Positions 38,478-63,800 are shown, counted from the first letter of the stretch. The stretch: 64,000 nucleotides of DNA from a bacterium (GCA_021790215.1 JAJYIG010000001.1:194-64193); one strand, 5' to 3'. Made by a program: numbers and translations. Notes: generated from the sequence alone by a model not told the origin.

Positions 38478-39164
38478 TTAGATAGCGCCGACACCGCTAA
38501 TCATGGCAAATGGAGTTTTAATCATAACACCTAAATCAAAAAGGATTGATTTTCGGCGCGCATATTCAGCATCCATTTTAATCCTCTTTTCAAAACCAAT
38601 ATTACTCCTTCCGGTAACTTGCCAATACCCTGTAATCCCAGGCTTTACCGTCAACATGTCTTTAACATATTTTTCTGTCCCTCTGTACCTTTTTTGCTGC
38701 TCTTCAAGCTCTTTAGGTAGGTAGGGTCTGGGACCCACCAAACTCATTTCTCCTTTCAAAACATTAAAAAGTTGCGGCATCTCGTCAATAGAGTGTTTCC
38801 GAATAAACCGTCCGAATTTCATAACCCTTGGGTCTTTGTGAAGCTTGTAGCCCGAATTTTTGTATTCTTCATAAAGACTCCTAAACTTCGGGTCTGTCTC
38901 AAGAAGTTTATCGGCGTTAACAAGCATGGAACGGAATTTATAAAGCCTAAAAACTTTTCCGCCTTTTGTAAGACGTCTCATGTGTGAGTTCTCTTTCTCG
39001 ACAAGCACAGGACCTTCCGAAGTAATTTTAATTATTATGGCTGTCAAAATTATTATTGGGGAAAAAAGAACTAAAAGAAATATTGAGGCGAAGACATCTA
39101 TCGTTCTTTTAGTAAGATCATATAACATAAATTTCCTAAAGAAGGTCCGAACGTTTTTCCTCAA
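38478..39164 (-). CDS. Initiating polyprenyl-phosphate hexose-1-phosphate transferase (bacterial sugar transferase, PglC/WbaP C-terminal-domain type)
   Basis: 228 aa. Re-entrant helix KRTIDVFASIFLLVLFSPIIILTAIIIKI, then KFRSM...DEMPQLFNVLKGEMSLVGPRP, the monotopic PGT catalytic signature. Confidence 0.88.
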   Translation of the reverse strand: MRKNVRTFFRKFMLYDLTKRTIDVFASIFLLVLFSPIIILTAIIIKITSEGPVLVEKENSHMRRLTKGGKVFRLYKFRSMLVNADKLLETDPKFRSLYEEYKNSGYKLHKDPRVMKFGRFIRKHSIDEMPQLFNVLKGEMSLVGPRPYLPKELEEQQKRYRGTEKYVKDMLTVKPGITGYWQVTGRSNIGFEKRIKMDAEYARRKSILFDLGVMIKTPFAMISGVGAI

Positions 39165-40242
39165 TTAATTTCTCAACGACTTTTTTAACATTCTGCGCCT
39201 TGCTCTTGGAGCATATCAAAAGGGCATCATCTGTGTCGACGACAATAATATTATCAACATCAATTACTGCAATTGTCCTGCCGTTCTTGTGTATCAGGGC
39301 ATCTGAGGTATCAATATTTATAATCTCTCCGCCTTTTTCGCCATCATCCAATACCACATTCCCTGAATCGTCTTTCTTACTATTCTCCCAGACTTCCTTC
39401 CAATCCCCGATATCTGTCCAATTGAAGTCACCATGAACAACATAGAAGTTTTTAGATTTTTCAGCCACAGCGTAATCAATTGCAATCTTAGGTATATCTT
39501 TATAGACATCCCCGATACTTTCCCCATTCTCCAATCTTTTGAGATGTTTTGAGATTTCTGGAGCATATTTCTCAATTTCAGACAGAAGCACATCGGCTCT
39601 CCAAACAAACTCGCCGGCATTCCAATAGTAATCTTTAGATTCCGTATATTTTTTGGCTAATTCAAGGGGTGGCTTTTCAACAAATTTTTCCAACTTAAAA
39701 AATGACACATCACCCACATCTGCAAGTCTTTTACCTCTTTTGATATGTCCAAGACCTGTGTGGGGATATCTTGGTGGAACACCTAAAGCGATCAAAACTC
39801 TTTCAGAGTAAGCGACCTCGGCTGCAGCTTTTAGCACTTGAAGATAGCGGTGAACCGGACTAACCAGCCGATCCGCAGCCTCTGTAATTATAACCGCATC
39901 GGGATCTAGTTTTTTAATAATATATGCCCCGAGTGCGTGTGCCGGTCCTGTTTCCCTTCTTGCCGGTTCCACAATAATGTTTTCCTTCTTAAACTCCGGC
40001 ACCTCTTTAATAATTTCCTTTTTATAATCCTCAGATACAGTTACGCAATAGATATGATCCGGCGACACCAATTGCTTAAACCTCAAAAATGTCAACTGAG
40101 TTAACGTTTGCTTATCCAGGAAAAGCGGCAAAAACTGTTTGGGGGTCTTGTTTCTTGATTGCGGCCAAAGTCGGGTTCCTCCTCCGCCTGCCAGGATCAA
40201 AGCGTACAAGTGATCTTTATAATTATTTGCCTTTGATTGCAT
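39136..40242 (-). CDS. manC: Mannose-1-phosphate guanylyltransferase (GDP-mannose pyrophosphorylase)
   Basis: LILAGGGGTRLWPQSRNKTPKQFLPL nucleotidyltransferase signature; no PMI domain. Confidence 0.78.
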   Translation of the reverse strand: MQSKANNYKDHLYALILAGGGGTRLWPQSRNKTPKQFLPLFLDKQTLTQLTFLRFKQLVSPDHIYCVTVSEDYKKEIIKEVPEFKKENIIVEPARRETGPAHALGAYIIKKLDPDAVIITEAADRLVSPVHRYLQVLKAAAEVAYSERVLIALGVPPRYPHTGLGHIKRGKRLADVGDVSFFKLEKFVEKPPLELAKKYTESKDYYWNAGEFVWRADVLLSEIEKYAPEISKHLKRLENGESIGDVYKDIPKIAIDYAVAEKSKNFYVVHGDFNWTDIGDWKEVWENSKKDDSGNVVLDDGEKGGEIINIDTSDALIHKNGRTIAVIDVDNIIVVDTDDALLICSKSKAQNVKKVVEKLIEEKRSDLL

Positions 40243-41347
40243 TATTTACTATTCTAACAAAATCTTTCCCAAATTTCTCATTTGAAAATCTATTGGAATT
40301 TCTAATGAGATTATCCGCTTTAAATTTCATCTTTTCAAATCTTAGAACTGCTTCCTCCAAACTTTCTGTGGTTTGACTACCAAAAAAAAGGCCGGTCTTT
40401 CCGTCAATAACAGTATCCAATGCTCCACCTTTTTTGTATGCGATAACAGGAACGCCGCGCGCCTGAGCTTCAACGGCAACAATACCAAAATCTTCCTCCT
40501 GTGGCATTACAAGCGCCTTCGCTTTCCGGTAAATCTCATCGAGCTTCCTTTCAGTAACTCTACCTACAAATTTAATGTTTTTATCTGCCATTTGTTTTAA
40601 TTTACTCTCCTCTCTTCCGGATCCGACAATCGTAAGAGGTAATTTCAACCTGTTAAATGTTTTAATCGCCAAATCAACCTTTTTATAACCATAGTCCAAT
40701 CTGCTAACTAACAGATAGTACTTTTTTGTACTATCAATGAGTCGATTCATTGATACACCCACAGGAGGAAACACTACTACCGAACTTCTCCCATAATATT
40801 TTTTAATACGCTCTTTTACTCCGCTGGAGATAGCGACCATAATATCAGGTTTTTTTGCCATTTCTTTATCCCAATTTCTATGAATATTAATAAATGGTTT
40901 TACAAAAAACCTAAGTATCGGGTTTTTGAAATAATCATTAAAACCGCTCCATAAATACCGCGTTGGAGTCAGGCAATAACAGATATGTTTTGTTTTTCTA
41001 CCAACACGAATTCCTTTGGCAGCCTCACTGGTTACAGTAATAACAAGATCATAATCTGAAAAATCAAATGAATTGAAAGCCACCGGCATTAAAGGGGCAA
41101 AAAATTCATGGTTTGAATGGGCAAAAGGAATTTTCTGCAAAAATGATGTATGCACCTCAGGGAAAACTTTCGCCCAAGGAGCCTTCCGAGACTCATACAC
41201 CGAAGTAAAAAGTGGAGCCTCAGGAAAGATCTCATGAAGGGCAAGAAGAACTCTTTCCGCTCCTCCCCACTTATTGACCCTATCATAAACCAACGCAACC
41301 CTCAGGAGTTTCTTATTCATTGGACATAAGAGCAGTTTCATAAACAT
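40223..41347 (-). CDS. GT4-family (GT-B) glycosyltransferase
   Basis: C-terminal EX7E region EEDFGIVAVEAQARGVPVIA. Confidence 0.85.
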   Translation of the reverse strand: MFMKLLLCPMNKKLLRVALVYDRVNKWGGAERVLLALHEIFPEAPLFTSVYESRKAPWAKVFPEVHTSFLQKIPFAHSNHEFFAPLMPVAFNSFDFSDYDLVITVTSEAAKGIRVGRKTKHICYCLTPTRYLWSGFNDYFKNPILRFFVKPFINIHRNWDKEMAKKPDIMVAISSGVKERIKKYYGRSSVVVFPPVGVSMNRLIDSTKKYYLLVSRLDYGYKKVDLAIKTFNRLKLPLTIVGSGREESKLKQMADKNIKFVGRVTERKLDEIYRKAKALVMPQEEDFGIVAVEAQARGVPVIAYKKGGALDTVIDGKTGLFFGSQTTESLEEAVLRFEKMKFKADNLIRNSNRFSNEKFGKDFVRIVNNAIKGK

Positions 41348-42428
41348 GTAAGGTCTCTTTAGCCATTTTGCCCCAGCTATATTTCTCGATGAACTTCAGA
41401 GATTTGGCAATTCTTAATTCTCTTTCTTTTTTGGTCATACCAAGCACTTTTATCATAGAATCCGAAATTGATGAAGGGTCAAAGGGATCAAAATAGATTG
41501 CATTCTCGCCATATATCTCCTTGAAGATCGGAATATTTGAGGCGAGAACCAAAGTTCCGGAAGACATAGCCTCAAGTCCTGGGAGACCAAACCCTTCAGA
41601 GACGGAGGGAAAGACAAAAGCTAAAGAATTCTTGTACATCTGTCCCAACACATCATCAGGAACAAAACCGGCAAGTTTTACAAATCCATCCACGTCCAGA
41701 TTTTTTGTTATTTTTTGAAGTTTTTGAGTAAAAATATTCCTCGCACTGGCAATAACCAAAATAACCTTATGATCAACTTTTTTGTTCAATAATTTAACCG
41801 CTTCAACCAAGCGATTCAAATTCTTGTGAGGATAAGCGTTACCTGCATAGAAAAAATAAGGTTCCTTAATTTTTTCGCCCTCCTTAAAACCAATCGTCTT
41901 ACCAACTCCTTCGTAAGTAATAAAAATCTTGTCAGACGTAAAGTGATAACTCTTAACGATATCACTTTTAACAACTCCGCTAGGAACCAAAATATACTTT
42001 GAATTTCTTACAGCCCTATTAAAAACAAATTTATAAGCTAGTTGTTTAAAGAAATATAATGGAGCAGGAAGTGTCGTCGCCGAAAGTCCTGCAAATTCAT
42101 GCATCAACATATCGTGTATCGTAACAACATATTTACCTTCGTAAAAAACTGGGACATTAAAGTGCGGAAAATGAACTAAGTCAGGTTTTTCTTTTTTAAT
42201 ATAAATAGGAAGAAGTATTTGCTCCTTAATTGAATAGTGCCGAAAGTCTGTCATAACTTTCTTCCAATTTTCAGGAAGGGTTAAGTTATTAAAATACTTT
42301 TTTCTCAAAAAAATCACATATTCATTTCTAGAATCGATTTTGGAAAGTTCTGAAACCAAATTGACAAGGTACCTGCCTAAGCCGGCGTTTTCCAGACCAT
42401 AAAGACGTCCGTCAATTAGAATCTTCAT
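41313..42428 (-). CDS. GT4-family glycosyltransferase
   Basis: SVSEGFGLPGLEAMSSGTLVLASN; paralogous to the GT4 genes at 50000 and 51188. Confidence 0.85.
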   Translation of the reverse strand: MKILIDGRLYGLENAGLGRYLVNLVSELSKIDSRNEYVIFLRKKYFNNLTLPENWKKVMTDFRHYSIKEQILLPIYIKKEKPDLVHFPHFNVPVFYEGKYVVTIHDMLMHEFAGLSATTLPAPLYFFKQLAYKFVFNRAVRNSKYILVPSGVVKSDIVKSYHFTSDKIFITYEGVGKTIGFKEGEKIKEPYFFYAGNAYPHKNLNRLVEAVKLLNKKVDHKVILVIASARNIFTQKLQKITKNLDVDGFVKLAGFVPDDVLGQMYKNSLAFVFPSVSEGFGLPGLEAMSSGTLVLASNIPIFKEIYGENAIYFDPFDPSSISDSMIKVLGMTKKERELRIAKSLKFIEKYSWGKMAKETLHVYETALMSNE

Positions 42429-42429
42429 A

Positions 42430-43338
42430 TTAGTATGCGGACAGAAGCACCACCCTCACATATCTAATCAACTTGAAGACATTTATTCCAAAAACAACAA
42501 AATAGTCAAAGAGAAGGGGATAATTGTTCCATAAATTTTTTCTGAAAAATCTCTCCATAGAGACAACACCCGCCAGTCTCACCTTTCTCCTCTCCGCAGT
42601 CGTGGTCTTATGTTTCCATTTAGCAACCTTCCCTTTAGTTACACCCTTAATATGAGTCACTATAACTTCCGGATAATAGACTAGCTTATAGCCAGACTTA
42701 TGAATTTGATAACAGAGATCGATATCTTCACCGTCAAAAAAATAGTTTTCATCAAACCAACCCACTTTATCCAAGATTTTCTTCCAGGTCAGAAAGAATG
42801 CCCCCTGGATAGCCTCTACTTCCTGAATTGTGTTTTCAGGCACGTCCTCATACCAATATTCCTTACCCAACCCAAGAATAAGGTGCTGAAATGAAATCCA
42901 GGGCGTAGGAAACCGACGCCGCGCATCTTTATCCATTGAACCATCAGGAAGAACTAATTTACACGTCAATGCCCCAATGTCATCGTGCTCCTTAAGATAT
43001 CCAACGGTTTTTCGAAACACATTGTCGTTAATTACTGTATCAGGGTTTAAGAAAAGAACCATCTTTCCTCTAACAAGCGGCTTGGCACGGTTGTTGCCTT
43101 TAGAAAATCCTTCGTTTGGCCCTTCGATTAATTTCACCCATGGGAACTTTTTCCTAACCATAGCGACGCTCCCGTCTGTTGAGGAGTTATCAGAAACAAC
43201 AACTTCCATAGAAACTTCTTTCATATGCGCCTTAACCGAATTCAGACAATCCTCTAGAAGTTCTTTTGTATTGTAATTAAGAATTATTACTGTTAAATCT
43301 GGTTTTTTCATACTTGGTTTCCTCGTAAATTCTGTCAA
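42430..43338 (-). CDS. GT2-family (GT-A) glycosyltransferase
   Basis: LTVIILNYNTKELLEDCLNSV ... VVVSDNSSTDGS, DxD region. Confidence 0.85.
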   Translation of the reverse strand: MTEFTRKPSMKKPDLTVIILNYNTKELLEDCLNSVKAHMKEVSMEVVVSDNSSTDGSVAMVRKKFPWVKLIEGPNEGFSKGNNRAKPLVRGKMVLFLNPDTVINDNVFRKTVGYLKEHDDIGALTCKLVLPDGSMDKDARRRFPTPWISFQHLILGLGKEYWYEDVPENTIQEVEAIQGAFFLTWKKILDKVGWFDENYFFDGEDIDLCYQIHKSGYKLVYYPEVIVTHIKGVTKGKVAKWKHKTTTAERRKVRLAGVVSMERFFRKNLWNNYPLLFDYFVVFGINVFKLIRYVRVVLLSAY

Positions 43339-44503
43339 GATATTCCGCCATTCTATACCAGCTGTACTTTCTAACTACAAGGTCTCTGGCATTTCTTGCA
43401 ATCAAGGATGCGAAATGTTTGTTACTAAGAACTTTCAAAACAGCATTTGCTATATCTTCAGGGTTATCTTCAATAATTATTTCTTTATTATTTTTTGCAC
43501 CAAGACCTTCAGCCCCTACTGTAGTTGTAACCAACGGTAATTTCGCAGCCATTGCTCCAAAATGTTTGAGCCTAGTCCCGCCAGGTCCTTTTAAGGGTGA
43601 GACAAAAACAGACGCCTCGTAATAAGCTTTTCTGATTCCCTCCTGATCATCTTCCTTCAGATCGTCTATCAATATATTTCCAGTTTGTCTTTCCTTAATC
43701 TCGCTTGGAATATGTTGACCGACAATCCAAACTTTTACCGTAGGATCTTTTCTATAAACAAGTGGAAAGACATCATCCAAAAGGATTTTTGCCGCCTCTA
43801 TATTTTGCAACCACTTAAAATTTGCCACAAACAACATCCTCGGATTTTTACGATTCCAGTTAACTTTAACCTTGAAAAAACTCAAGTTAACTCCGTTCGG
43901 AACCAATGCAACATCCAGATTCGGCACCAACTTCCGCATCTCAGTTTTATCAACATCTGAAACCGCAACAACTCCGTCTGCTTTTTTCCAAAATTTTGTT
44001 TCCCAAAAACGAAGTTTAGCGACATCAATTGACAATACCCATCTAACGATGGAGTTTTTAATTCCTTCAACATAATGTTTATAAACAAGATATTCTATCG
44101 TTTGTTCTACTAAAAGGATTGGGATTTTGGTATCGGGAATATGAGGCATTACATAGAATGTTTCCGCATGGATTAAGTCGTAATTAACTTTTGTTATTTC
44201 CTCTTTAACAGCAGCGCTTTCCCTGGGAGAAAGATTTCGAATAACCAAAAATGGGTAGGGCCCGAAACCAGTCAAGAGAATGTTACGTAAGGTCCAGGGT
44301 GACTTTGAGCGCCTAAATACACGAACCTTTTTACAATATTTCTCCAATTCCGGAATATACTTTTTTTCCGAGTCATCTTTTATTAAAGAAAAGAGAGTGA
44401 TCTCGTGTTTTTTGCTCAAATCCTTAATTAAATTGTAAGAACGTATTTGCCCGCCCGATGAGTCCGGAAAAGGCAAATATGGTGTAAGCATCAAAATCTT
44501 CAT
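43277..44503 (-). CDS. GT4-family glycosyltransferase
   Basis: MKILMLTPYLPFPDSSGGQIRSYNL start, C-terminal EASVFVSPLKGPGGTRLKHFGAMAAKLPLVTT. Confidence 0.8.
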   Translation of the reverse strand: MKILMLTPYLPFPDSSGGQIRSYNLIKDLSKKHEITLFSLIKDDSEKKYIPELEKYCKKVRVFRRSKSPWTLRNILLTGFGPYPFLVIRNLSPRESAAVKEEITKVNYDLIHAETFYVMPHIPDTKIPILLVEQTIEYLVYKHYVEGIKNSIVRWVLSIDVAKLRFWETKFWKKADGVVAVSDVDKTEMRKLVPNLDVALVPNGVNLSFFKVKVNWNRKNPRMLFVANFKWLQNIEAAKILLDDVFPLVYRKDPTVKVWIVGQHIPSEIKERQTGNILIDDLKEDDQEGIRKAYYEASVFVSPLKGPGGTRLKHFGAMAAKLPLVTTTVGAEGLGAKNNKEIIIEDNPEDIANAVLKVLSNKHFASLIARNARDLVVRKYSWYRMAEYLDRIYEETKYEKTRFNSNNS

Positions 44504-45981
44504 TTTGTTTTTGCAGGTAGTGGCTTAAGAAGATCGATAATTATATAATTATTAGTTTTTTCAACTGTAGTAAAACGAGATTCAATCATCTTGGTGTCAG
44601 CGCTTCCAAGATCTACTGAGACGTAGTAGCTTGCACCTTCTTTAATAATATTGTCTATCGAATTGTCAATTGCGGGCCACCCCCACCTCCCCGTCGCATA
44701 CAAAAATGCTGTATCACCGTCGTATGGTGCAACAACAAGAGCATTTTTGGGAGTAATTTTATCGACCTCTGCCCCGGCTTGGATAATCTCAGGGTGATTA
44801 ATATTATAATCTCCGGCTATTTGGTACCATCCGGTAATTAACATTACCCCAATCGAAAATATTAGGACAGTCCTTGCAAGAATCTTGTTAAAATTTGTTT
44901 GAGTCCAAAGGTAAACTGATCCGGAGGAAAGAGCCAAAGCAATCACAGGGATTGTCAGAATCTGATAATAGTCATGCATCACGTTTGCATCAGCCACCAA
45001 AACAACATAAAAAAGAGCCCCAATTAAAAACCAATGTATGAACAAATTTTTAGTCTTTGTATTAAATACGCCGAAGATAAAAGGAACAACACCCAAAGAT
45101 CCAAGTATGAGATGCCCCAACCGTTCTCCAAAAATCCAGTTCCAGTAAGCCGGATGAAACCTAATCCCATTCCCATTAAATGCCCACCAAAAAAACGGTA
45201 TCCCCATGGGAAACTTTGATTCCCACCACCTCCATAAAGCAAAAGGAATAGACCCAATTAGTACATAGGAAATTCCTTTTAAGATGAGCTTTCTATCTTT
45301 TAGAATTCTTTTAAACCCAAACTTCTGCACTGTAAGATATGCGATCGGAATGGCATAAAAACCTTGATAGGGTTTGATAAGCATCATAAGGGCAAAAAAT
45401 ACTGCTGAGAGATAGAAATAGAAATCTTTGGAATTGTCAAAAAACCTAACATACATCCAAATTGAAATCACTCCGAAAGTTACTCCCATGGGATCGGGCA
45501 AAATTACTCTTGTAAAGTAGATGTTATAAGGAATAAATAAGTAGAAAAACGCGGAGGCAATCCCTCCCCAACCACCCAAGAACCTTTTACCAATAAGATA
45601 AAGAAAAAATGCAGTAATTAGGGCAGAAAATATGGTAATCAGACGCGACCAAACCTCCAAACTAAGATGCCCCAGGTTTGTTGTAAGAAGAGCTCCGATA
45701 GCATTATAGATGGGGAATTCCACCATTCTATAACCGTTGGGATTAAAAATTCCTGTTTGAATACTCGAAATATCATGATAGCGGGGAAGAAGTAAATTTA
45801 TACCCTGTTGAATATAAACCTTTGTGACCGAAGCGGTATCTGCCTGACGCCAACTATGCCAATCAGCAACCGGATTATTAATTTTATAAAGCCTGACTAT
45901 AAATCCGACAACAATCATTAACGATAACAAAATATACTCAAGCCATCTGCTTTTTAGAATAAGATTAATTTTCTTTAACAT
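44500..45981 (-). CDS. GT-C fold membrane glycosyltransferase (PMT/ArnT-like, GT39/GT83 type; lipid-phosphate-sugar dependent)
   Basis: 493 aa with at least 10 TM. First extracytoplasmic loop carries DWHSWRQADTA; architecture is that of dolichyl/undecaprenyl-P-sugar transferases. Confidence 0.6.
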   Translation of the reverse strand: MLKKINLILKSRWLEYILLSLMIVVGFIVRLYKINNPVADWHSWRQADTASVTKVYIQQGINLLLPRYHDISSIQTGIFNPNGYRMVEFPIYNAIGALLTTNLGHLSLEVWSRLITIFSALITAFFLYLIGKRFLGGWGGIASAFFYLFIPYNIYFTRVILPDPMGVTFGVISIWMYVRFFDNSKDFYFYLSAVFFALMMLIKPYQGFYAIPIAYLTVQKFGFKRILKDRKLILKGISYVLIGSIPFALWRWWESKFPMGIPFFWWAFNGNGIRFHPAYWNWIFGERLGHLILGSLGVVPFIFGVFNTKTKNLFIHWFLIGALFYVVLVADANVMHDYYQILTIPVIALALSSGSVYLWTQTNFNKILARTVLIFSIGVMLITGWYQIAGDYNINHPEIIQAGAEVDKITPKNALVVAPYDGDTAFLYATGRWGWPAIDNSIDNIIKEGASYYVSVDLGSADTKMIESRFTTVEKTNNYIIIDLLKPLPAKTK

Positions 45982-47368: not shown

Positions 47369-48245
47369 TAGACCAAAGAATAATTCTTAATATTACACCA
47401 AACTTTAGGATTGCCTGAAGTACGGGAATTTTCCACTTCGGTTCATGCTTCCTGTAAAGCAATATAAGATTTTGCAACTCATATATCACAGCTTTTTCGC
47501 TTCCTGTGGTCACCTGACCAAAGTGGATTATCTTCCATTTTGGTAAATACCAAACCTCCCATCCCGCTTTTGCAATTCTATTGGAAAGTTCAACTTCCTC
47601 AACATATAGGAAAAAGTCCTCATCAAAATATCCCGCCTCCTCCATTGCTTCTTTTCTCACCCAAAAATAGGCGCCCGTTACCCAATCTTGACGGTGGGGT
47701 TTTTTGAAAAATTCATCTCCTTTATAAAAAGGCGACCAACCATGAAGGGGGTGATAAGGTTTCACAAATCTGTCAACCCAGGGAATATCATCCAAAAAGA
47801 TCATCCAAGCCAAAACCCTTGGAAGAGTCGGGTAAAAACCTCCCGATCCCTGATATGTTTTTCCGTCAGAATTAAGAAGTGCGCAGCTGGAAAGTCCCAC
47901 TTTTGGATGTTTATCCATCCAGGAAATCATCTCTTTAAAAGTTTTTTTATCAATTATTTTAGTGTCCGAATTTAAAAGCAAAATATACCTACCTTTGGCA
48001 ATCTTCATCCCATAATTATTGTTCTCTCCAAAACCATGGTTTTCGTATTTTCTAATTAGTTTTACCTGAGGGAACTCCTTTGCCACCATTTTCGGAGTGT
48101 TATCTGAAGAGGCATTATCAACTACTATGACCTCGCTTGAGATGCCTTTCAGAGAAGAAAAGACACTTTTGAGACAATCCCAGAGCATGTTCTCAAAGTT
48201 CGTACTAACAACGATAATCGACAAGTCTACTTCCTTTTGTGCCAT
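47313..48245 (-). CDS. GT2-family glycosyltransferase
   Basis: LSIIVVSTNFENMLWDCLKSV ... VVDNASSDNT ... LLLNSDT. Confidence 0.85.
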   Translation of the reverse strand: MAQKEVDLSIIVVSTNFENMLWDCLKSVFSSLKGISSEVIVVDNASSDNTPKMVAKEFPQVKLIRKYENHGFGENNNYGMKIAKGRYILLLNSDTKIIDKKTFKEMISWMDKHPKVGLSSCALLNSDGKTYQGSGGFYPTLPRVLAWMIFLDDIPWVDRFVKPYHPLHGWSPFYKGDEFFKKPHRQDWVTGAYFWVRKEAMEEAGYFDEDFFLYVEEVELSNRIAKAGWEVWYLPKWKIIHFGQVTTGSEKAVIYELQNLILLYRKHEPKWKIPVLQAILKFGVILRIILWSIACKRDATKIYAKALKVI

Positions 48246-53668: not shown

Positions 53669-53674
53669 TGATAG

Positions 53675-55773: not shown

Positions 55774-56773
55774 ATTTCTCAGTTATTTTATCCCAATCAA
55801 ACTTTTCTGCCTGAGTCCTCGGTTTATTCTCCCAATTCGTATTCATAGCTTTTTGTAAAGCCTTAGCATATTCATCAATATCGGTTGGGTCTACCAGGAT
55901 TCCTGCCTCACCAACTATTTCTCTTCTTACAGGATCGTCTGTGGCAACTACAGGCAGTCCTGATGCCATAGCTTCTACCAAAACGTTTCCAAACGCCTCA
56001 GAGGAAGCTGAGGGCAATGTAAAAACATCGGCTGCCCCATAAACTTCCGGCATTTTCTCAAAAGGCACGGATATTACCTCGAATCTTTCTTTACCCAACT
56101 TCTTAATTCCTAGATCGTAGATCTTGTCTCTTAATTCCCCTCCTCCACCGGCAATAATAAGCTTTACGTTCTTAAGTTTGGCCGCTGCATCAATGGTAAG
56201 ATTTAATCTCTTTTGTTCCGTAAATGCACCAACAGCTAAAATGATTTTTGTTTTATTCCTTAATCGATAATCTCTAACCTTAAATCTAGTCAGATCAACA
56301 CCGTTCGGGATTTTGATGATCTTTGCAAACGGAACTTTTTTTGCCCACTGTTCTGCTTTAGTCGAAAGAGCAACAAAAGCGTTTGGAAAACACCAAAGAT
56401 TGTTAAGATCATCCCATCCAATCCCCGATTGCCCGGAAATCACCATTTTAGATCCCCGAATCCAAGTTAAAATCCTGATAAACGCCGGCTGCCACCCACC
56501 ATTGAGAGGAATAATAATATCCGGTTTTTCTTTCCAAATTTCTGGAAGTTTTTTAAGGGTAAAGCCCGCAATTGCACGACCGTTTCTATCAAGAAATGGT
56601 CTTGAAAGACGGCTTTTAGACCTTGGAGGAACTATGATATCTCCCCCTGATATTATCTTTACTTTATTATTCTCGGAAAGCCTTTTGGAAAGTTCCTTTA
56701 CAAAAGTTTCAGCGCCTCTTGAGGTAGTATCCTGATAAATATTTAAAAACAAAACCTTCATTTTTGTATTCAT
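55748..56773 (-). CDS. GT4-family glycosyltransferase
   Basis: FTLPSASSEAFGNVLVEAMASGLPVVATDDPVRREIVG. Confidence 0.85.
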   Translation of the reverse strand: MNTKMKVLFLNIYQDTTSRGAETFVKELSKRLSENNKVKIISGGDIIVPPRSKSRLSRPFLDRNGRAIAGFTLKKLPEIWKEKPDIIIPLNGGWQPAFIRILTWIRGSKMVISGQSGIGWDDLNNLWCFPNAFVALSTKAEQWAKKVPFAKIIKIPNGVDLTRFKVRDYRLRNKTKIILAVGAFTEQKRLNLTIDAAAKLKNVKLIIAGGGGELRDKIYDLGIKKLGKERFEVISVPFEKMPEVYGAADVFTLPSASSEAFGNVLVEAMASGLPVVATDDPVRREIVGEAGILVDPTDIDEYAKALQKAMNTNWENKPRTQAEKFDWDKITEKYEILFNSL

Positions 56774-56794: not shown

Positions 56795-58159
56795 TTATTT
56801 GGGAACCAGTATCTCAATCCCGTCAACTTTATTGCTAATTTTATAGTTTGCTGAAACAAAAGCGTAGACCTTTTCCGGAATGTAAGAGGAAAGTCCTGTT
56901 TCAGAATATTGTTGAAGTAAAATTAATCTTGGTTTTGAGTTTTCCAAATCCGCAACTTCCTTTTCCTGAACTCCGTGAATTTCCTGGTACCAGGAAAGTT
57001 GCGGAACCCACGGATCAGTTGCAGGAAGCGTATCGGTTAATGCATAAAGACTATCCCAATAGTTCATTACAAAAATCTTTTCTCCCGGAATCGAGTTCTG
57101 CCTCACATAAGAAGCCACGTCCTGAACATCCTGCTCGTAGAACCTAATACCCTCGTCATAATTCCTGATGAAAAATACCGCCAATAAATATAACGATGCA
57201 AAAACATAAAATATTATAAGGAAACGGATTAAAACATTTTTCCAATTTAAGTTTGTAAATACCAGTCCAGAGACGATTGCAAGATATGGGACAGCGGGCT
57301 GAAAATGAAAATATTCAAACCGGGGGTAAGCCCCCAAACAACCGACAAAAGCCCAAATGGTCATTTGCAAGGGACGAACCCTTGCAGAACTATGAGATTT
57401 AAAAAACAAAGGAATGAAAATCGCAAAAGGAACTGCCGCAACAGCCAGGCTTCTCAAGTCCGGTAATTGTATCTGGCCCGAAGCTTTTGGCAAAATAAAA
57501 ACACCGAAATTCACAGCCCAGTAATAAAAACTTGGTAAAAGGTGAATGGCAAAAAGTAAAAACACGAAAGAGGTTAAAACTACCAACCCACCCAAAACAA
57601 AGTTCTTGCCGTCTTTAAAAATTGCTTTGGACCCGAAAATTTCGAGAGCCACGGGAACGATAAAATAAGCCGCCGTTTGTTTGGTAAAAACAGCCAGCGC
57701 AAAAAGAACGCCAGCAGCAAACCACTTTTTGATGCGCAAAAAGTAAAACGAGGCAAACATCCAAAAACCCATAAATAGATCAAACCAAAGTCCGTTCCCA
57801 TCAAAGAATAATTGCCAGATAACAAATGATGTAAGTGCAATGAGCGCAACTCTCCGCCCCCAGAGCCTCCTGACAACCCAAAAGAAAAAGGCATCGAAGG
57901 CCAAAATTAATCCCCAGGTAAATATCTGCAGTTGGGAAATTCCAACTCCGAATAATTTGTAAAAAACTGTAAGAAAGACAAGCAGTAAAGGTGTATGGGC
58001 AATTGCGATGTCTTTGTAGGGCAAAAGGCCGTGCAATGTTAAATATGGCCAGACAAGCATCTCCGGCCAGGCAGTAAATTTAAATTTCAACAGAAGAAGC
58101 AGGTGTAGTAGTAAAATCCCAACAAGAAATACTAATACTATTTTATTTATTCTACTCAT
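56795..58159 (-). CDS. Polytopic membrane protein (possible GT-C/mannosyltransferase-like; unassigned)
   Basis: 454 aa, 10+ TM, aromatic-rich loops; no diagnostic motif recognised. Confidence 0.45.
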   Translation of the reverse strand: MSRINKIVLVFLVGILLLHLLLLLKFKFTAWPEMLVWPYLTLHGLLPYKDIAIAHTPLLLVFLTVFYKLFGVGISQLQIFTWGLILAFDAFFFWVVRRLWGRRVALIALTSFVIWQLFFDGNGLWFDLFMGFWMFASFYFLRIKKWFAAGVLFALAVFTKQTAAYFIVPVALEIFGSKAIFKDGKNFVLGGLVVLTSFVFLLFAIHLLPSFYYWAVNFGVFILPKASGQIQLPDLRSLAVAAVPFAIFIPLFFKSHSSARVRPLQMTIWAFVGCLGAYPRFEYFHFQPAVPYLAIVSGLVFTNLNWKNVLIRFLIIFYVFASLYLLAVFFIRNYDEGIRFYEQDVQDVASYVRQNSIPGEKIFVMNYWDSLYALTDTLPATDPWVPQLSWYQEIHGVQEKEVADLENSKPRLILLQQYSETGLSSYIPEKVYAFVSANYKISNKVDGIEILVPK

Positions 58160-58209: not shown

Positions 58210-59049
58210 TCAATAACCAACCTGCCCTTTCCATAATCTTCTTTTAATTTTTCTTAGTGGTGTTTCGAAAAATGCCCTTGTCTCGAAGTACCCCGACATG
58301 GCTTCCCAAGGGCTACTTATAAAATCAGGTTTATTTTCAAAAAATACTTCCGGGTAATAATAATCTAAAGGAAATGGTTTACCAATTTCATATTTTAATT
58401 TTTTCGCCCTCTTAATTACTTCCAGATCGTTTGACCTTTCTCCGCCTCTCGGAAGAAATGTCGCGTGAAGGTATGGTACATCTACAAACTTTAGCTTGTC
58501 AGAATCTCTATCCTGAATCATCTTACCATCACCGTCTGCCCAACCCCAAACCCCGTGAGCTCCCTTTGAGTGAAGTCCGGGAATATTTCTTTTTATAGCA
58601 CGCAAATTATAGTGCCCCACCTTATCTCCGAATTTATACCTACCTGCAGCTTCTTCCTGAAAATGAAAAATATCACCGACTAAATTAATTGTTTGAACAA
58701 CTACCGATTCAATACTTTCCCCCTCATTCTTTATAGTTCCAATGACCTTCTTAATTGAATCTTCAAACCATATTTCATCTGCATCTAGCATTAAAAACCA
58801 GTCAGATTCTGTTTCATCAAGCATTTCTTGCCGGACACCCGTAAACTCTTCTGCTGTTTTTTGCAAACGGCTTTTGAAAATAATTTTGTCCGGATATTTC
58901 TTAGCTAACTCTTTTTCAATTTCGATACTCCCATCTGTACTGCCCGCATCCCAAAGAAGCAATTTATCTACATGATTAATAACTGAAGATACCGAATACC
59001 AAAGCCGTCTTGCTTCGTTTTTAACGAGTGTGTGTGCCCAAATCTTCAT
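58210..59049 (-). CDS. GT-A fold (GT2-like) glycosyltransferase
   Basis: LLWDAGSTDGS ... FLMLDADEIWF (DxD), no TM. Confidence 0.6.
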   Translation of the reverse strand: MKIWAHTLVKNEARRLWYSVSSVINHVDKLLLWDAGSTDGSIEIEKELAKKYPDKIIFKSRLQKTAEEFTGVRQEMLDETESDWFLMLDADEIWFEDSIKKVIGTIKNEGESIESVVVQTINLVGDIFHFQEEAAGRYKFGDKVGHYNLRAIKRNIPGLHSKGAHGVWGWADGDGKMIQDRDSDKLKFVDVPYLHATFLPRGGERSNDLEVIKRAKKLKYEIGKPFPLDYYYPEVFFENKPDFISSPWEAMSGYFETRAFFETPLRKIKRRLWKGQVGY

Positions 59050-59121
59050 AAATCTATTTTACCCCATTTCTTTCTTTAAAACTCGGAGCTATACTTGTAT
59101 CCAACTTAGAACGAGCTTAAA

Positions 59122-60984
59122 ATGTGCGGGGTTGCAGGCATAGCTTACTTCAATAAAAATAAAGAGATTCATCCACACGAGCTAACGTTAATGGCAAAGG
59201 CCCTTATTCATCGGGGACCTGATGATGGAGGAATATTTCTGTCGGAAGATAAACGAGTGGGTTTTGCGTCAAGGAGATTATCCATCATCGACCTATCCAA
59301 AAAGGGCCACCAGCCCATGACATATTTAGATAGATACACAATTACTTATAACGGTGAAATATATAACTTCCAGGAAGAAAAAAGGAAACTTCAAAAACTC
59401 GGCTTTTCCTTCAAATCTGACACTGACACTGAAGTAATCCTTGCCTTATATGCAAAATATGGGAAAAATTGCCTGGAACATCTACGGGGTATGTTTGCTT
59501 TTGTAATTTATGATCATATCGAAAAAACATTATTTATGGCCAGGGACAGAATCGGGAAAAAACCATTAAAGTACTTACTCGATGACCAAAAGATAATTTT
59601 TGCCTCTGAACTCAAAGCAATTCTTACACAAACTGGGATCAAGAAGATTCCGGATTATAATGCAATTCATCTTTACCTGACTTATGGATACACCCCATCC
59701 CCCCTAACCGGATTTGAAGGGATCAAAAAGCTTGAACCCGGAACTTACATATTTATAAATCTTAGAAGAAAAACTTTTGACAAAGTCAGATATTGGCAGC
59801 CCAAGTTTAATAATAAACTTCAACTATCAGAAAAGCAGTGGTGTCAAAAAATATTGGATACACTAACTGAATCCACAAAAATCAGAATGGTTTCAGATGT
59901 CCCGATTGGTGCATTTCTTTCCGGCGGGGTTGACAGTAGCGGTGTTGTCGCCACAATGGCAGAGCTTTCAGGTAAACCCATTGAGACTTTTACAATAGCT
60001 TTTAATAGCAAAGAATATAACGAGGCGCCTTATGCTGCGAGGGTTGCGAAAATGTATAAGACTCACCATCACATTCTAACAGCCAAACCAAAATCGGTAG
60101 ATATCCTGCCGTCAATTGTAAAACAGTATGAAGAACCGTTTTCCGATGCCAGTGCGGTTGTATCCTTCCTGGTATCTGAGATGACCAAAAAATATGTAAC
60201 CGTAGCCCTAAATGGAGATGGTGGAGATGAAAATTTTGCGGGATACCCCAATAGATATATGCGACTCAGACGTGATGTTGATTATGACTTTTGGATACAA
60301 AATATAAGACCGGTTGCTGCGAAACTACTACAAAGTTTTCCGAAAGCAAGAAATTTCTTTGAAAAAGCAAAACTGCCTTTATATATGAGGTTTGCATCAT
60401 ACAATAAAGTTTTCTCTCCGGATGAACTGATGAACCACGCCAGGGGACCAATACTTGATCTTGCCAGACATCAAAATCCATATCAGATTGTAGAATCATG
60501 CTTCAAAACATTTAATGGGAAAGATATAAAAGATGCGGGACTTAAATTTGATTTACTATATTTTCTGCCGGATCAACTTCTTACAAAGATGGATATTGCA
60601 TCAATGGCGGTTTCTCTTGAAGCCAGATCTCCTTTATTGGATCAGAACATGATCGAATTGGCCGGAAAAATTCCTTTTGAGCTCAAAGTTAAAAATGGGG
60701 TATCAAAATATATACTAAAAAAGGCCTTTGAAAAAATTGTACCCAAGGAGTGTCTTTATAGACCCAAGGTGGGTTTTGGTCTTCCTTTAAACAAATGGTT
60801 TTCTGGTACGCTTAATAAATATGCAAAAAGTTTGCTGCTTTCCAAGGATTCTCGGGTTAGCGAAATATTCGACAGAGAATATGTAAAAAATATCGTCGAG
60901 GATAACAACAAACATGACGATTTTGGACCGAGACTTTGGAACTTAATGTGTATGGAGCTTTGGTTCAGAGCTTATTTCACCTAG
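59122..60984 (+). CDS. asnB: Asparagine synthetase B-type glutamine amidotransferase (N-terminal Ntn Cys2 with PP-loop synthetase domain)
   Basis: MCGVAGIAY (Cys2 nucleophile), PP-loop SGGVDSS. 620 aa. It is the only plus-strand gene inside the glycan island. Confidence 0.88.
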   Translation: MCGVAGIAYFNKNKEIHPHELTLMAKALIHRGPDDGGIFLSEDKRVGFASRRLSIIDLSKKGHQPMTYLDRYTITYNGEIYNFQEEKRKLQKLGFSFKSDTDTEVILALYAKYGKNCLEHLRGMFAFVIYDHIEKTLFMARDRIGKKPLKYLLDDQKIIFASELKAILTQTGIKKIPDYNAIHLYLTYGYTPSPLTGFEGIKKLEPGTYIFINLRRKTFDKVRYWQPKFNNKLQLSEKQWCQKILDTLTESTKIRMVSDVPIGAFLSGGVDSSGVVATMAELSGKPIETFTIAFNSKEYNEAPYAARVAKMYKTHHHILTAKPKSVDILPSIVKQYEEPFSDASAVVSFLVSEMTKKYVTVALNGDGGDENFAGYPNRYMRLRRDVDYDFWIQNIRPVAAKLLQSFPKARNFFEKAKLPLYMRFASYNKVFSPDELMNHARGPILDLARHQNPYQIVESCFKTFNGKDIKDAGLKFDLLYFLPDQLLTKMDIASMAVSLEARSPLLDQNMIELAGKIPFELKVKNGVSKYILKKAFEKIVPKECLYRPKVGFGLPLNKWFSGTLNKYAKSLLLSKDSRVSEIFDREYVKNIVEDNNKHDDFGPRLWNLMCMELWFRAYFT

Positions 60985-62527
60985 ATGGGCACATATTTTC
61001 TAAAGATCCTGCGTAAATATATGCCAAATCAACTCCGTTTTCTCTCGCCACATAAGTAGGATTATTCGCCCCATAAAATGCATCCAACTCAGGATCCTTT
61101 TCCAACTGAATATAATAGGCTTCTACAAAAAACAGCTTTTGGTTTTTCCAGTTAGGACTAAAGCGGTATGGGTAATAATATGGAATTGTCGAGTTTCCGC
61201 ATCCTAAAGCACCAATTTCCTTTACTTCAGGGTAGCACTTAAGAATGTAATCCGCCGCCGCCTTAGACCCTTCACAAAGCCCCACAAGGTCATATTTTCT
61301 AGCATTCACGCTTCCGCCTATGAAAACATTATAATAAAGATCGTGGTACGGGAAGAGCGAAATAAACAAATAAAAAAACCAAATAAAAATTGCAGAGATC
61401 GCCACCACTCTTAACCACAACGTCTTTAGCTTACCGGCAGCCCAGACAATAACCCAAGAAGAAAATGCATATATCCACGGCCAGACCGGAAGTTCATACC
61501 GCACACCAAGCTTCTTGGCGGAAAAAGAAATTGAGGCCAAGAATAAAACAATAAATACAGTAATGCTCCCGCCGTGTTTAAAATCGACAATTTTCTTCCT
61601 GACCAAATTTAGGTAGATAAAAACGAGAAGCCCCAAAATGATTATAGGCGGAGTCCTGACCAATATCTCAAAAAGATAATAATAGGGTGGGGGGTTGTTG
61701 GTAAGCTGCCCGAAAAAATAATTATTTATTCCGCCACCAACCAAAGCCGTTTCTCTAAAAAGATATTCAGGTATGGCTAAAAATAAATTTTCCCAGCATG
61801 TCGGCCACGCAAGAGAAATAAAGATAAAGGACAAAAAGACGGAGGATAAGAATTTCGTAAGCTCGTCCTTCCAGTTTTTATAATTTAGAAATATCTGTAA
61901 GAAAAATATCGGAAAGACAAGAATCCCGTCCGGCTTAGTCAAAAAGGCTGTGGCTGCAGTTAGAGAAGAAATAATAACCGACCAATTTCTATTTTTTATC
62001 AAAAGGTAGGAAGAGAGCGAAACAAAAGTAAAAGCCGTTAAGAATATATCATTCATAATCAGCTTACTATTCGCAACAAAAATGGGGTCCAAAAGTAGCA
62101 AAAGAGATGAAACTGCGGCAACCTTCTTATTAGTAAATCTTTTTACGAATAGATAATAAAAGACAATAAAAACTGCCGAGAAAAAAATAACTGCTCCTCT
62201 TCCGGCTATATAATCCTGAAAAACGTTGCGGCTGACAACACTCTGCCCTTTGCCCAAATAAATCAAAGGGAAACCGGAAATCACTGACAAGGGAATTGCA
62301 ATAGCCTCTGTGTCGGTTTTACTCGTCCACCAGGCAGTCTTGAAATAATTAAAGTTCTTAGTTTTTATCGCCAATGCGGTTTCTTTGCCGCGAACCATCC
62401 ACGTAATCTCATCGGGATAGACCGGTGTTTCACTTAAACGATAAAAACGCGTTGCTAAAAATAATCCGAAAAGGATGAGGATAAAAATAATTTCTTTCCG
62501 GTGTCTAACCATGTTACTTGCTTTCAA
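60977..62527 (-). CDS. GT-C fold membrane glycosyltransferase (PMT/ArnT-like)
   Basis: 516 aa polytopic. First loop YPDEITWMVRG (DE motif) with the ArnT/PMT-like architecture. Confidence 0.6.
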   Translation of the reverse strand: MKASNMVRHRKEIIFILILFGLFLATRFYRLSETPVYPDEITWMVRGKETALAIKTKNFNYFKTAWWTSKTDTEAIAIPLSVISGFPLIYLGKGQSVVSRNVFQDYIAGRGAVIFFSAVFIVFYYLFVKRFTNKKVAAVSSLLLLLDPIFVANSKLIMNDIFLTAFTFVSLSSYLLIKNRNWSVIISSLTAATAFLTKPDGILVFPIFFLQIFLNYKNWKDELTKFLSSVFLSFIFISLAWPTCWENLFLAIPEYLFRETALVGGGINNYFFGQLTNNPPPYYYLFEILVRTPPIIILGLLVFIYLNLVRKKIVDFKHGGSITVFIVLFLASISFSAKKLGVRYELPVWPWIYAFSSWVIVWAAGKLKTLWLRVVAISAIFIWFFYLFISLFPYHDLYYNVFIGGSVNARKYDLVGLCEGSKAAADYILKCYPEVKEIGALGCGNSTIPYYYPYRFSPNWKNQKLFFVEAYYIQLEKDPELDAFYGANNPTYVARENGVDLAYIYAGSLENMCPSR

Positions 62528-63800
62528 CCCAGTAGTGCCTTATTACAATCACCCAAGTAAAGACGGCGAGAATTAAATTGGTAGCACCTAAAGTGATAGT
62601 CGGCCCAAAAACCCCAAATTTGGGAATTAAGAAAAAGTTCAGAAGAAATATTGCAGCTATCTGGAAAAAAGAATAGGCACCAATAAAAACAGTTTTCTTC
62701 ATTGCGTAAATAATTGCCGAAACGGATGGAGCAGTAAAAAGAAATGGAATTTGGGCAGCTGCCAAAGCCTGGAAAACAGGAACGGATGCCAAATATTTAG
62801 TCCCAAAAAGGACAAGAATGAAAGGCTTGGCAATTATTATCCAAAATATTATTCCCGCAGTAATCGGTAAGATGGCAAGCGTCGACTTAACAAGGTATTT
62901 CCTCTCACTCATTTTATCTCCGAAGGCAGCAAATCTTGGCGCGAGAACGGAAGAAAAACTCCCGGAAAGAACCACTATAAAAGACGCCAGGCGGGAAGGG
63001 ATCGAGTAAAGTCCTGTCGCAAAAGCACCTGCCATTGTAGCCAACATCTGTATATCAAGCCTTCCGGAAATTGATGAAATGATTCTATTAACCCCGATCC
63101 AGCCGGAAAACTTAAGAAGATTTTTATATTCATTTTTTGTAGGATTAGAAAATATAAAATCGGTTCTTACAAAATAAATTACCAATATCGTCTCTACAAT
63201 AAAGCCCGCCCCAAATGCCCAGAACGCCCTTGAGATGTTTAATCCTCCATAAACATAAAATGCCAACGCAAATAAAAGCCTGCCTATATAAAACGCATTA
63301 TCAATAATTGTTGAGTGCAGGAATTTCTTCTTGGCTTGGAGAATGTAAGGAAAAAACATATCGGGAAATATAAATATCGGTATAATTGCGGCCCATACAG
63401 CAACTGAAGGGTCGCGGGTAGCCAAAAGTTTTGTTGAGACAAAGGGTGCAAAAATTATCACAACAGCCGAAATCGCAAGAACTATCAAAATCCTGATTAC
63501 AAAAGATGCTTTTACATACTCATCAGCTTTCTTGCTATCACCTTTTGCAAAATGCTCAGAAACAAAGTTAACAGAACCTGAAGATATTCCGACATCGGCC
63601 AATGAGGACAGGATTGTAACTAAATTAATCGCTGCCGAGAAAATCCCGAATTCCGCAATAGAAACAGCGCGAGCAATAAATAGGGTAAATAAAAAACCCC
63701 AAAAAGCAGAAGCGGTGTTGCCGACAAAAAGAATAAAGGTATCTTTGGCAGTTGCAGAAAAAAGGGCGGATCTAACCCAGTCAAAATATTTCCTCATCAA
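62514..63800 (-). CDS. Wzx-like oligosaccharide flippase (MOP superfamily polysaccharide biosynthesis protein)
   Basis: 428 aa with about 12-14 TM; N-terminal region FILFVGNTASAFWGFLFTLFIARAVSIAEFGIFSA is typical of Wzx/RfbX. Confidence 0.65.
   Translation of the reverse strand: MMRKYFDWVRSALFSATAKDTFILFVGNTASAFWGFLFTLFIARAVSIAEFGIFSAAINLVTILSSLADVGISSGSVNFVSEHFAKGDSKKADEYVKASFVIRILIVLAISAVVIIFAPFVSTKLLATRDPSVAVWAAIIPIFIFPDMFFPYILQAKKKFLHSTIIDNAFYIGRLLFALAFYVYGGLNISRAFWAFGAGFIVETILVIYFVRTDFIFSNPTKNEYKNLLKFSGWIGVNRIISSISGRLDIQMLATMAGAFATGLYSIPSRLASFIVVLSGSFSSVLAPRFAAFGDKMSERKYLVKSTLAILPITAGIIFWIIIAKPFILVLFGTKYLASVPVFQALAAAQIPFLFTAPSVSAIIYAMKKTVFIGAYSFFQIAAIFLLNFFLIPKFGVFGPTITLGATNLILAVFTWVIVIRHYWVESK

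Follow-up and report, generated by a model that had tools for sequence, protein, structure and literature searches.

What does a bacterium with a small genome make with about 25 kb of consecutive glycan-assembly genes? The question is raised by a stretch of bacterial DNA of 64,000 nucleotides (GCA_021790215.1 JAJYIG010000001.1:194-64193), which we call the window. An open reading frame (ORF) listing and Pfam and NCBIfam scans place 23 tightly packed genes at positions 38478–63800, 22 of them on the minus strand and a single one, AsnB, on the plus strand. We consider it probable, with some reserve, that a bacterium of the Microgenomates group (Patescibacteria, Candidate Phyla Radiation or CPR) has in this region its core operon for a cell-envelope glycan, encoding a pathway with two stages that runs on a polyprenyl-phosphate carrier. 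The product would most likely be a secondary glycopolymer in the envelope of a cell of monoderm type, with a conserved structure that contains mannose and is acetylated. The family and fold assignments, the gene order and the conservation are observed directly.

In the pathway we propose, GDP-mannose would be supplied by a ManC-family enzyme and the lipid would be primed by a small PglC-type phosphoglycosyl transferase (PGT). Glycosyltransferases of two families (five or six of GT4, two to four of GT2), together with an LbH acetyltransferase, would then assemble the glycan at the inner face of the membrane, and a Wzx-type flippase would carry it across. On the outside, a Wzy_C protein, possibly with two partners (unk184 and DUF4012), would polymerise or ligate the glycan, and four conserved GT-C enzymes (five in the window) would attach more sugars from polyprenyl-phosphate-sugar donors. 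We infer the order of the reactions, the identity of the sugars, the acceptor, and a polymer as opposed to a single oligosaccharide. A lipid-linked pathway with extracytoplasmic GT-C steps had been proposed in an earlier reading of this DNA (the original prediction), and the gene set bears it out. Models reviewed for Gram-positive wall polymers, which combine Wzx/Wzy, LCP (LytR-CpsA-Psr) ligases and GT-C decoration, agree with the proposed pathway (PMC8035078).

Conservation in the Microgenomates group

Related loci were taken from contigs found by exact protein look-up, from a scan of GTDB genomes with an alignment of one GT-C (GTC3) and from a metagenome scan with the PGT, which gave 113 loci in all. 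Synteny was studied in 56 non-redundant loci, whose ORFs were labelled by BLASTP against the window proteins; presence is counted as loci with the gene among loci spanning its slot. The result is clear: 493 of 500 adjacent ortholog pairs are collinear with the window, at 33–84% amino-acid identity. Eighteen core genes, including four GT-Cs, unk184 and DUF4012, are present in about all loci. In the 5' part these are Wzx (19/19), GT2d (20/20), GTC4 (20/20), GT4f (23/23), GTC3 (25/26) and GT2c (23/26). They are followed by GTC2 (23/26), GT4e (26/26), GT4d (28/28), LbH (31/31), unk184 (35/38) and Wzy_C (40/41), and in the 3' part by GTC1 (37/37), GT4c (28/28), GT4a (21/22), PGT (22/22) and DUF4012 (22/22). 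Accessory genes are GTC5 (2/19), a peptidase of family S51 (6/31), AsnB (12/19), GT2b (22/40), GT2a (17/22) and GT4b (18/23).

Among the record titles of the loci are Candidatus Woesebacteria, Daviesbacteria, Microgenomates and Microgenomatus, and one of the loci is from the complete Woesebacteria genome CP011214 (819 kb); the NCBI taxonomy places Woesebacteria within the Microgenomates group of the Patescibacteria group. Several loci with a Microgenomates-type operon (L010, L016, L017, L026, L027, L031-L033) carry 'uncultured Gammaproteobacteria' or 'Pseudomonadales' titles, labels which look wrong.

This distribution bears on the term "island", which had been used for the region and does not hold: its base composition is unremarkable and its gene order is kept across the Microgenomates group. 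GC content is about 0.38, against about 0.40 in the flank and 0.356–0.437 in the remainder of the window. No tRNA, Rfam or mobility features were found in scans of the window. An ordinary O-antigen or capsule island, horizontally acquired and variable between strains, would account for the classical set of PGT, Wzx, Wzy_C, GT4 and GT2 genes, and the 5' flank of Wzx does vary in relatives, with methyltransferases, extra GT-Cs and a presumably GacI-like GT2. Nevertheless, order and content are kept throughout the group even where identity is only about 35%, the composition does not deviate, flanking mobility genes and tRNA are missing from the window and the position beside the dcw (division and cell-wall) cluster is fixed, so we regard such an island as highly improbable. 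Horizontal acquisition was in fact rejected on composition, the lack of tRNA and Rfam features and conserved synteny. The comparison with related genomes, which had been proposed as a check, found the operon conserved, and the change of content from relative to relative that is typical of O-antigen and capsule loci was not seen. The conserved order argues for a vertically inherited core operon, not for an accessory or serotype locus.

Some local differences between loci were detected. Many relatives have MetW-like methyltransferases 5' of Wzx and between GT2d and GTC4, which are not found in the window (for example, L003 1396-2142; L004 2260-3012 and 7053-7757; L006 6832-7551). These insertions suggest that the glycan is probably methylated in the lineages which have them. 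Further differences were seen in two sets of loci (L020, L022, L024, L026, L027, L030; L018, L019, L022, L023, L028). In Daviesbacteria-type loci, GTC3 lies between GT4e and GT4d, and there is an extra GT2b-like gene. Several loci contain additional distant GT-C paralogs, with 24–27% identity to GTC3, and L007/L008 have an inserted MFS (major facilitator superfamily) transporter.

Position beside the dcw cluster

The 3' side of the operon is also constant. The PGT is followed by DUF4012 and then by RecO in every locus. The DUF4012 gene (36420–38453, minus strand) comes directly after the PGT in 22 of 22 loci, so we count it as an operon member even if it falls outside 38478–63800. In most loci RecO is followed by an aminoacyl-tRNA synthetase, an unknown gene, MraZ and MraW, so that the operon directly precedes the dcw cluster and shares its strand. 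In the window, whose positions 1–27400 are filled by the dcw cluster, a six-gene insertion with an ABC transporter, nucleases, an LCP ligase and TspO separates RecO from dcw.

An operon which directly precedes dcw suggests that the glycan would be made alongside peptidoglycan. Conserved order and content, taken together with this linkage, favour a fixed envelope glycopolymer over a variable antigen. About 3% of a genome of about 0.8–1 Mb is given to the operon. The view that the region is a very large investment for a small genome is thus confirmed: it takes up about 25 kb, and related complete or near-complete genomes have 0.74–1.1 Mb. This share of the DNA, the fixed order in Woesebacteria, Daviesbacteria and their relatives and the tie to dcw suggest that the operon probably makes a conserved and essential envelope glycan.

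The dcw cluster of the window has some features of its own. Positions 17389–21647 contain two fusions, one of a MurC-type ligase with MurB (754 aa) and one of a Mur ligase with a sugar-phosphate nucleotidyltransferase as its C-terminal domain (665 aa). Genes for a FemAB-family transferase, for an aminotransferase of the DegT/DnrJ type and for an alpha/beta hydrolase separate MraY from a Mur ligase (11158–14055); they hint at a modified peptidoglycan precursor or an amino-sugar.

GT-C glycosyltransferases

We assign the five polytopic proteins of the region to the GT-C glycosyltransferases, and their sequences and one structural model predict that they are catalytic. They are GTC1 (44500–45981, 493 aa), GTC2 (52337–53668, 443 aa), GTC3 (54571–55773, 400 aa), GTC4 (56795–58159, 454 aa) and GTC5 (60977–62527, 516 aa); the first four are core genes and GTC5 is accessory. 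At least three PMT/ArnT-type enzymes had been expected: this was correct, and the actual number is five. GTC1 (53.9 bits with PMT_2), GTC2 (53.2 bits with PMT_2) and GTC5 (42.8 bits with PMT and 39.3 bits with PMT_2) exceed the Pfam thresholds; GTC3 (18.9 bits) and GTC4 (23.8 bits) reach PMT_2 scores below threshold. GTC5 alone matches PMT, the remaining GT-Cs match PMT_2 only. Apart from a weak DUF2079 match of GTC5, no other Pfam family is matched, and none of the five belongs to GT87/DUF2029 in Pfam. Sequence and profile searches of the PDB with GTC2, GTC3, GTC5, the Wzy_C protein and DUF4012 gave nothing meaningful, and no PMT sequence match was found there for the GT-Cs searched.

The two proteins below threshold were assigned by other means. 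Homologs of GTC3 were collected, and 38 of them were aligned. Its AlphaFold2 model (mean pLDDT 93.8) was compared with the PDB by Foldseek, and the top 39 or so matches are GT-C enzymes, led by ArnT (5f15, E=6e-6, TMq 0.60) and followed by ALG12, STT3/PglB, Pmt4, AftB and Emb. Structure prediction had been suggested for the GT-C proteins, and the one run, for GTC3, shows the GT-C fold. When ortholog profiles are compared with hhalign, GTC4 matches GTC1, GTC2 and GTC3 with probabilities of 96.8, 95.4 and 94.8%, and GTC5 matches GTC1 and GTC2 with a probability of 95%. By the same method, no relation was seen between the GT-Cs and the Wzy_C protein.

The catalytic Asp or Glu of GT-C enzymes sits directly after the first transmembrane (TM) helix. 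All five proteins have a conserved acidic motif in this position: DWHSWRQAD in GTC1, WLDEA in GTC2, FWxEQ in GTC3, WPE in GTC4 and PDE in GTC5. In GTC3, E31-Q32 are near-invariant in the alignment. GTC2 and GTC5 share a DE pair in their motifs.

Recent tandem duplication was considered as an origin of these genes and rejected: mutual BLASTP similarity is barely detectable, and each GT-C forms its own conserved orthologous group. Such low similarity points to old and distinct lineages.

The lipid-phosphate-sugar donor

GT-C steps of this kind would use lipid-phosphate sugars. The original prediction included a candidate Dpm1-like GT2, which the comparison does not support. Among the four GT2 proteins only GT2c (53675–54574, 299 aa, core) has a GtrB/ArnC-like topology, a GT-A domain followed by two C-terminal helices which form a TM hairpin. 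Its similarity to DPMS, ArnC and GtrB is limited to the generic N-terminal 110 residues or so, with 23–32 bits, and it reaches 66–70 bits with GalT1/CgT and chondroitin synthase. GT2c is thus closer to ordinary sugar-to-sugar GT2s; it is not DPMS/ArnC/GtrB-like by sequence or by fold, and is best described as a membrane-anchored GT2.

A candidate for a synthase is found in some relatives. L004/L011, L006/L009 and L030 contain a TM-less GT2 of 233 aa, transcribed divergently from Wzx (L004 1518-2219; L006 453-1154; L009 477-1178; L011 1452-2153; L030 4326-5018), which is not present in the 64-kb window. It aligns over its full length with models for AglJ (117 bits), PpgS, a dolichyl-phosphate hexose transferase, PgfS and ArnC. 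From these matches, a role as lipid-phosphate-sugar synthase is plausible, and the protein may be of the GacI type.

These data also bear on the possibility of a lipomannan-like lipoglycan. Here a short primer would be made inside, and the GT-Cs would do most of the chain building: they would extend and branch a membrane-anchored mannan outside from polyprenyl-phosphate-mannose, as the mycobacterial PimE, MptA, MptB and MptC do. A gene of the GMP (mannose-1-phosphate guanylyltransferase, ManC) family always occupies its slot in the operon, the four conserved GT-C groups suggest four distinct linkages, and some relatives have the AglJ/PpgS/Dol-P-hexose-synthase-like GT2 beside the operon. The N-terminal part of GTC2 also matches a 'mannosyltransferase' model (NF052499, MnslTaseMT1671), with only 37 bits, far under the cutoff of 900 bits. 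On the other hand, the GT-Cs resemble PMT_2/ArnT-like models and not GT87/DUF2029, no Ppm1/Dpm1-like polyprenyl-phosphate-mannose synthase was recognised in the window and the glycan is primed on polyprenyl phosphate by a phosphoglycosyl transferase and not by a phosphatidylinositol mannosyltransferase. With ten glycosyltransferases in the cytoplasm, a large part of the glycan would also be built there. A lipoglycan of this type therefore seems quite unlikely to us.

Export, polymerisation and attachment

Wzx (62514–63800, 428 aa), the first gene of the visible locus, codes for a flippase of the MOP family, with 90.2 bits for Polysacc_synt, 48.4 bits for Polysacc_synt_3 and about 12–14 hydrophobic segments. 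The Wzy_C protein (45965–47368, 467 aa, core) has 45.8 bits for Wzy_C, above the cutoff of 31.7. It has no NCBIfam match and, profile search included, no sequence similarity to any solved structure, so the roles of polymerase and ligase are not separable: we predict from its family that it is one or the other. Its orthologs share an invariant stretch, GTGYSS..ATDNDYLR.LGETG, with an invariant D371-N372; in WaaL-type ligases, a His-Asn opens the corresponding motif, H[NSQ]x9Gxx[GTY], which suggests a possible His-to-Asp change in the family of the window protein.

Two conserved partners accompany this protein. The first one, unk184 (48227–48781, 184 aa, core), is a bitopic membrane protein whose N- and C-terminal hydrophobic segments flank about 115 residues, predicted to form an extracytoplasmic domain. 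It has no Pfam or NCBIfam match. All its 501 homologs are 'hypothetical' proteins with no Pfam domains, the named ones come solely from Microgenomates-type bins, and the gene is always upstream of (GT2b)-Wzy_C. The second one is the DUF4012 protein, with 677 aa, one N-terminal TM segment and 85.7 bits for Pfam DUF4012. As co-polymerases, both are candidates by topology only. Enrichment of the DUF4012 family in CPR and in Gram-positive bacteria has been reported, as has its presence in a Bifidobacterium cluster for capsular or extracellular polysaccharide (PMC6744442).

Attachment to peptidoglycan could possibly be carried out by an LCP glycopolymer-peptidoglycan ligase (30040–31236, plus strand; 106 bits for LytR_cpsA_psr and 89.7 bits for the NCBIfam LCP domain, cutoff 62.3). 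Its gene lies 7 kb from the operon on the opposite strand, within the six-gene insertion, which is confined to the subclade of the window. In the ORF listing, TspO (minus strand) and LCP (plus strand) overlap by about 290 bp within 29649–31236; the Pfam match of TspO begins at residue 78, and the overlap is probably a start-codon artefact.

A different use of the same enzymes would be general protein O-glycosylation, with S-layer proteins, pilins or other surface proteins as targets. The Wzy_C protein would transfer the glycan en bloc to Ser, Thr or Tyr as an O-oligosaccharyltransferase of the PglL/PilO/WsaB type, a family to which it belongs, and some GT-Cs would act on proteins as PMTs do. 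The PMT match of GTC5, the DE motif after TM1 in GTC2 and GTC5, the lack of a Wzz-type co-polymerase among the genes scanned and a PGT of the small PglC type, as in protein glycosylation pathways, are consistent with this view. According to one report, CPR depend on pili and surface proteins (PMC6744442). Nevertheless, no PglL_A domain was detected, the Wzy_C protein has no recognisable sequence likeness to any solved structure, and no candidate acceptor (a Ser/Thr-rich surface protein, a pilin or an S-layer protein) is encoded in the 64-kb window. GTC5, the sole protein with a PMT-family match, is accessory, and the operon is tightly linked to genes for peptidoglycan, with no such linkage to those for pili or an S-layer. 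We consider protein O-glycosylation possible and rather unlikely.

Several points also weigh against an envelope glycopolymer made by this operon. The Wzy_C family holds WaaL ligases and PglL/PilO protein O-oligosaccharyltransferases as well as polymerases. No Wzz/CpsC-type co-polymerase was found by Pfam and NCBIfam on all genes, and no suitable ORF of at least 100 aa was detected. The LCP gene is outside the core operon and nearby in one subclade only. No polyprenyl-phosphate-sugar synthase of the GtrB/CsbB/ArnC/DPM1/GacI type was recognised in the 64-kb window. A GtrA-type flippase is also absent from the window by Pfam and NCBIfam, with no suitable ORF of at least 100 aa; the single Wzx of the window could flip a lipid-phosphate sugar, as GacK does (PMC8035078). 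Finally, 15 glycosyltransferases and a PGT are far above what a Wzy repeat unit usually needs, and this surplus makes a simple repeat-unit polymer doubtful.

The surplus leads to a more speculative idea, which we think unlikely: The product would be one defined lipid-linked oligosaccharide of about 15 sugars, built in two ALG-like phases (about ten cytoplasmic GT4/GT2 steps, a flip and four or five GT-C steps), and then transferred en bloc by the Wzy_C protein to protein or peptidoglycan. It would be fixed across an entire CPR lineage and genetically coupled to the division and cell-wall cluster, and unk184 and DUF4012 would be accessory components of a new kind. If true, bacteria would have in this route their own version of the lipid-linked oligosaccharide pathway of eukaryotes and archaea.

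Supply, priming and tailoring enzymes

The enzymes which would feed the proposed glycopolymer pathway belong to well-known families, and every class listed in the earlier gene inventory is present at the coordinates given there in Pfam and NCBIfam. PGT, manC, Wzx, the Wzy-like protein, LbH, AsnB and S51 are all matched by Pfam. The six GT4 and four or five GT2 enzymes proposed correspond to six GT4 (starting at 40223, 41313, 43277, 50000, 51188 and 55748) and four GT2 (42430, 47313, 53675 and 58210).

The PGT (38478–39164, 228 aa, core), a small monotopic PglC-type enzyme, is an initiating phosphoglycosyl transferase as found in Wzx/Wzy pathways. Its Bac_transf match (199 bits) spans the full model, and it aligns with the C-terminal catalytic domain of the WbaP, WcaJ and exopolysaccharide (EPS) sugar transferases of NCBIfam. 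A single hydrophobic segment is found at residues 27–45.

ManC (39136–40242, 368 aa) is a mannose-1-phosphate guanylyltransferase with NTP_transferase (105 bits) and ManC_GMP_beta-helix (60 bits) domains and no phosphomannose isomerase (PMI) domain; its match to the NCBIfam model GMP_PMI (280 bits) covers model positions 2–352 of 467. The nucleotidyltransferase slot preceding the PGT always contains a GMP-family gene, of two divergent types with either 28–33% or 40–71% identity to the window ManC, and both types match GMP_PMI. This two-type pattern was seen in L035-L098.

The GT4 genes are GT4a (40223–41347, core), GT4b (41313–42428, accessory) and GT4c (43277–44503, core), each with a Pfam GT4 domain, and the core genes GT4d (50000–51124, Glycos_transf_1 130.6 bits), GT4e (51188–52270, 101 bits) and GT4f (55748–56773, 341 aa, 106 bits). 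GT4c and GT4f resemble the stp1/stp2 glycosyltransferases from PEP-CTERM-associated EPS loci; GT4c has 151 bits with stp1 (TIGR03087), below the cutoff. The remaining GT2 genes are GT2a (42430–43338, accessory, Pfam GT2 domain), GT2b (47313–48245, 310 aa, accessory, one C-terminal TM segment, Glycos_transf_2 78 bits) and GT2d (58210–59049, 279 aa, core), a soluble GT2 with no TM segment (51 bits).

LbH (49411–50007, 198 aa, core), a WcaF-like hexapeptide acetyltransferase (Hexapep, 63 bits), is the most conserved gene of the operon, with a median identity of 74%; its score with the NCBIfam WcaF family is 96 bits, below the cutoff. AsnB (59122–60984, 620 aa), a glutamine amidotransferase with Asn_synthase (313 bits) and GATase_7 domains, keeps an identical position and orientation in 12 of 19 loci. 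It passes the NCBIfam model asn_synth_AEB (450 bits, cutoff 267), and is similar as well to amidotransferases from EPS loci associated with PEP-CTERM (547 bits with the XrtA/PEP-CTERM amidotransferase, not passing its cutoff of 816). We infer that AsnB might amidate the glycan. The S51 peptidase (48781–49404, 207 aa, accessory, PepE/cyanophycinase-like, Peptidase_S51 79 bits) is found within the glycan operon in just 6 of 31 loci and has no apparent tie to glycan assembly. GTC5 orthologs were found in a few more loci away from the slot counted above.

Transcription units

The packing of the genes is operon-like, with overlaps at 14 of 23 junctions and a widest gap of 72 bp. At least 22 co-oriented, overlapping genes had been proposed: the count is right, while the uniform orientation is broken by AsnB and the overlap is not general. 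AsnB is convergent with GTC5 and divergent from GT2d, an antisense position which means at least two transcription units. A promoter and terminator scan of the region stays at background level, with the exception of one good match upstream of Wzx: the best sigma-70-like match of the region is found at 63833–63806, just 5' of this gene. It lies in a 107-bp intergenic region within 63801–64000, which is followed by the C-terminal end (...SIISKSK*) of a minus-strand ORF cut by the edge of the window. This ORF, which ends near 63907, has no match in the related loci, and suggests that the locus probably extends beyond the window.

Significance and comparison with known systems

To our knowledge, the envelope has hardly been studied by experiment in Microgenomates or in most other CPR, organisms which presumably live on other cells and rely on surface structures. 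Many of the families enriched in Microgenomates consist of hypothetical membrane proteins, and DUF4012 is CPR-enriched (Méheust et al. 2019, PMC6744442). The operon offers targets in this respect: the four conserved GT-C families, unk184 and DUF4012 may serve heterologous biochemistry and the design of lectin or antibody probes with which these uncultured cells could be visualised or enriched. It also bears on the distribution of multi-GT-C, ALG-like pathway logic in bacteria. Even if the product is an ordinary wall polysaccharide, an annotation gap is filled for thousands of 'hypothetical' proteins. No published description of the operon was found in the open-access full texts searched.

The secondary cell wall polysaccharide of B. 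anthracis is a close parallel. It is also built on polyprenyl phosphate in the cytoplasm of a monoderm, flipped by Wzx and handled by a Wzy-type protein, with external GT-C galactosylation by GtsABC and LCP enzymes available (PMC8035078). The operon differs in having four or five GT-Cs instead of one, 15 glycosyltransferases and neither a GtrA-type flippase nor a recognisable C55-P-sugar synthase in the locus; it also forms one unit with the dcw neighbourhood and is kept throughout a group at candidate-phylum level. The streptococcal group A carbohydrate (GAC, with GacI/J/K/L) and the rhamnan and pellicle of L. lactis are likewise made by conserved, probably essential wall glycopolymer loci, with cytoplasmic glycosyltransferases and GT-C decoration. 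In GAC, the Wzx-type flippase GacK can serve a lipid-monophosphate sugar (PMC8035078). Compared with these loci, the operon has no ABC exporter or rhamnose synthesis genes, its PGT is of the Bac_transf and not of the WecA/GacO type, and it has many more GT-Cs.

Serial action of distinct GT-Cs on one envelope glycan, lineage-wide conservation without serotype variation and GDP-mannose supply are shared with the mycobacterial machinery for arabinogalactan, lipomannan and lipoarabinomannan (Emb, Aft, Mpt, PimE), whose GT-Cs use polyprenyl-phosphate donors. Here, by contrast, the GT-Cs are PMT_2/ArnT-like proteins of 400–516 aa and not GT87, GT53 or Emb, the window has no Ppm1 homolog, and a Wzx/Wzy_C module is present. 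The eukaryotic and archaeal ALG pathways have the same topology, with a PGT, GDP-mannose-dependent GT4-type cytoplasmic steps, a flip and several GT-C steps on the far side, and the best fold matches of GTC3 include ALG12 and STT3. No oligosaccharyltransferase signature of the STT3/AglB type was found, and the final transferase would be the Wzy_C protein or LCP: this is a likeness of logic, which does not imply homology of the whole pathway. Gram-positive slg clusters and the PglL/PilO systems of Neisseria and Pseudomonas share a PGT, glycosyltransferases and a Wzy_C-family transferase acting on an undecaprenyl-pyrophosphate-linked glycan. They lack multiple GT-Cs and are linked to genes for their targets, unlike the window, which has no target gene.

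In summary, every component family of the operon is already known, as is GT-C decoration combined with assembly in the cytoplasm. A single Wzx/Wzy_C operon with this many distinct GT-Cs is new, and so are the two conserved unknown partners, unk184 and DUF4012, and the whole arrangement, fixed beside dcw across a CPR lineage.

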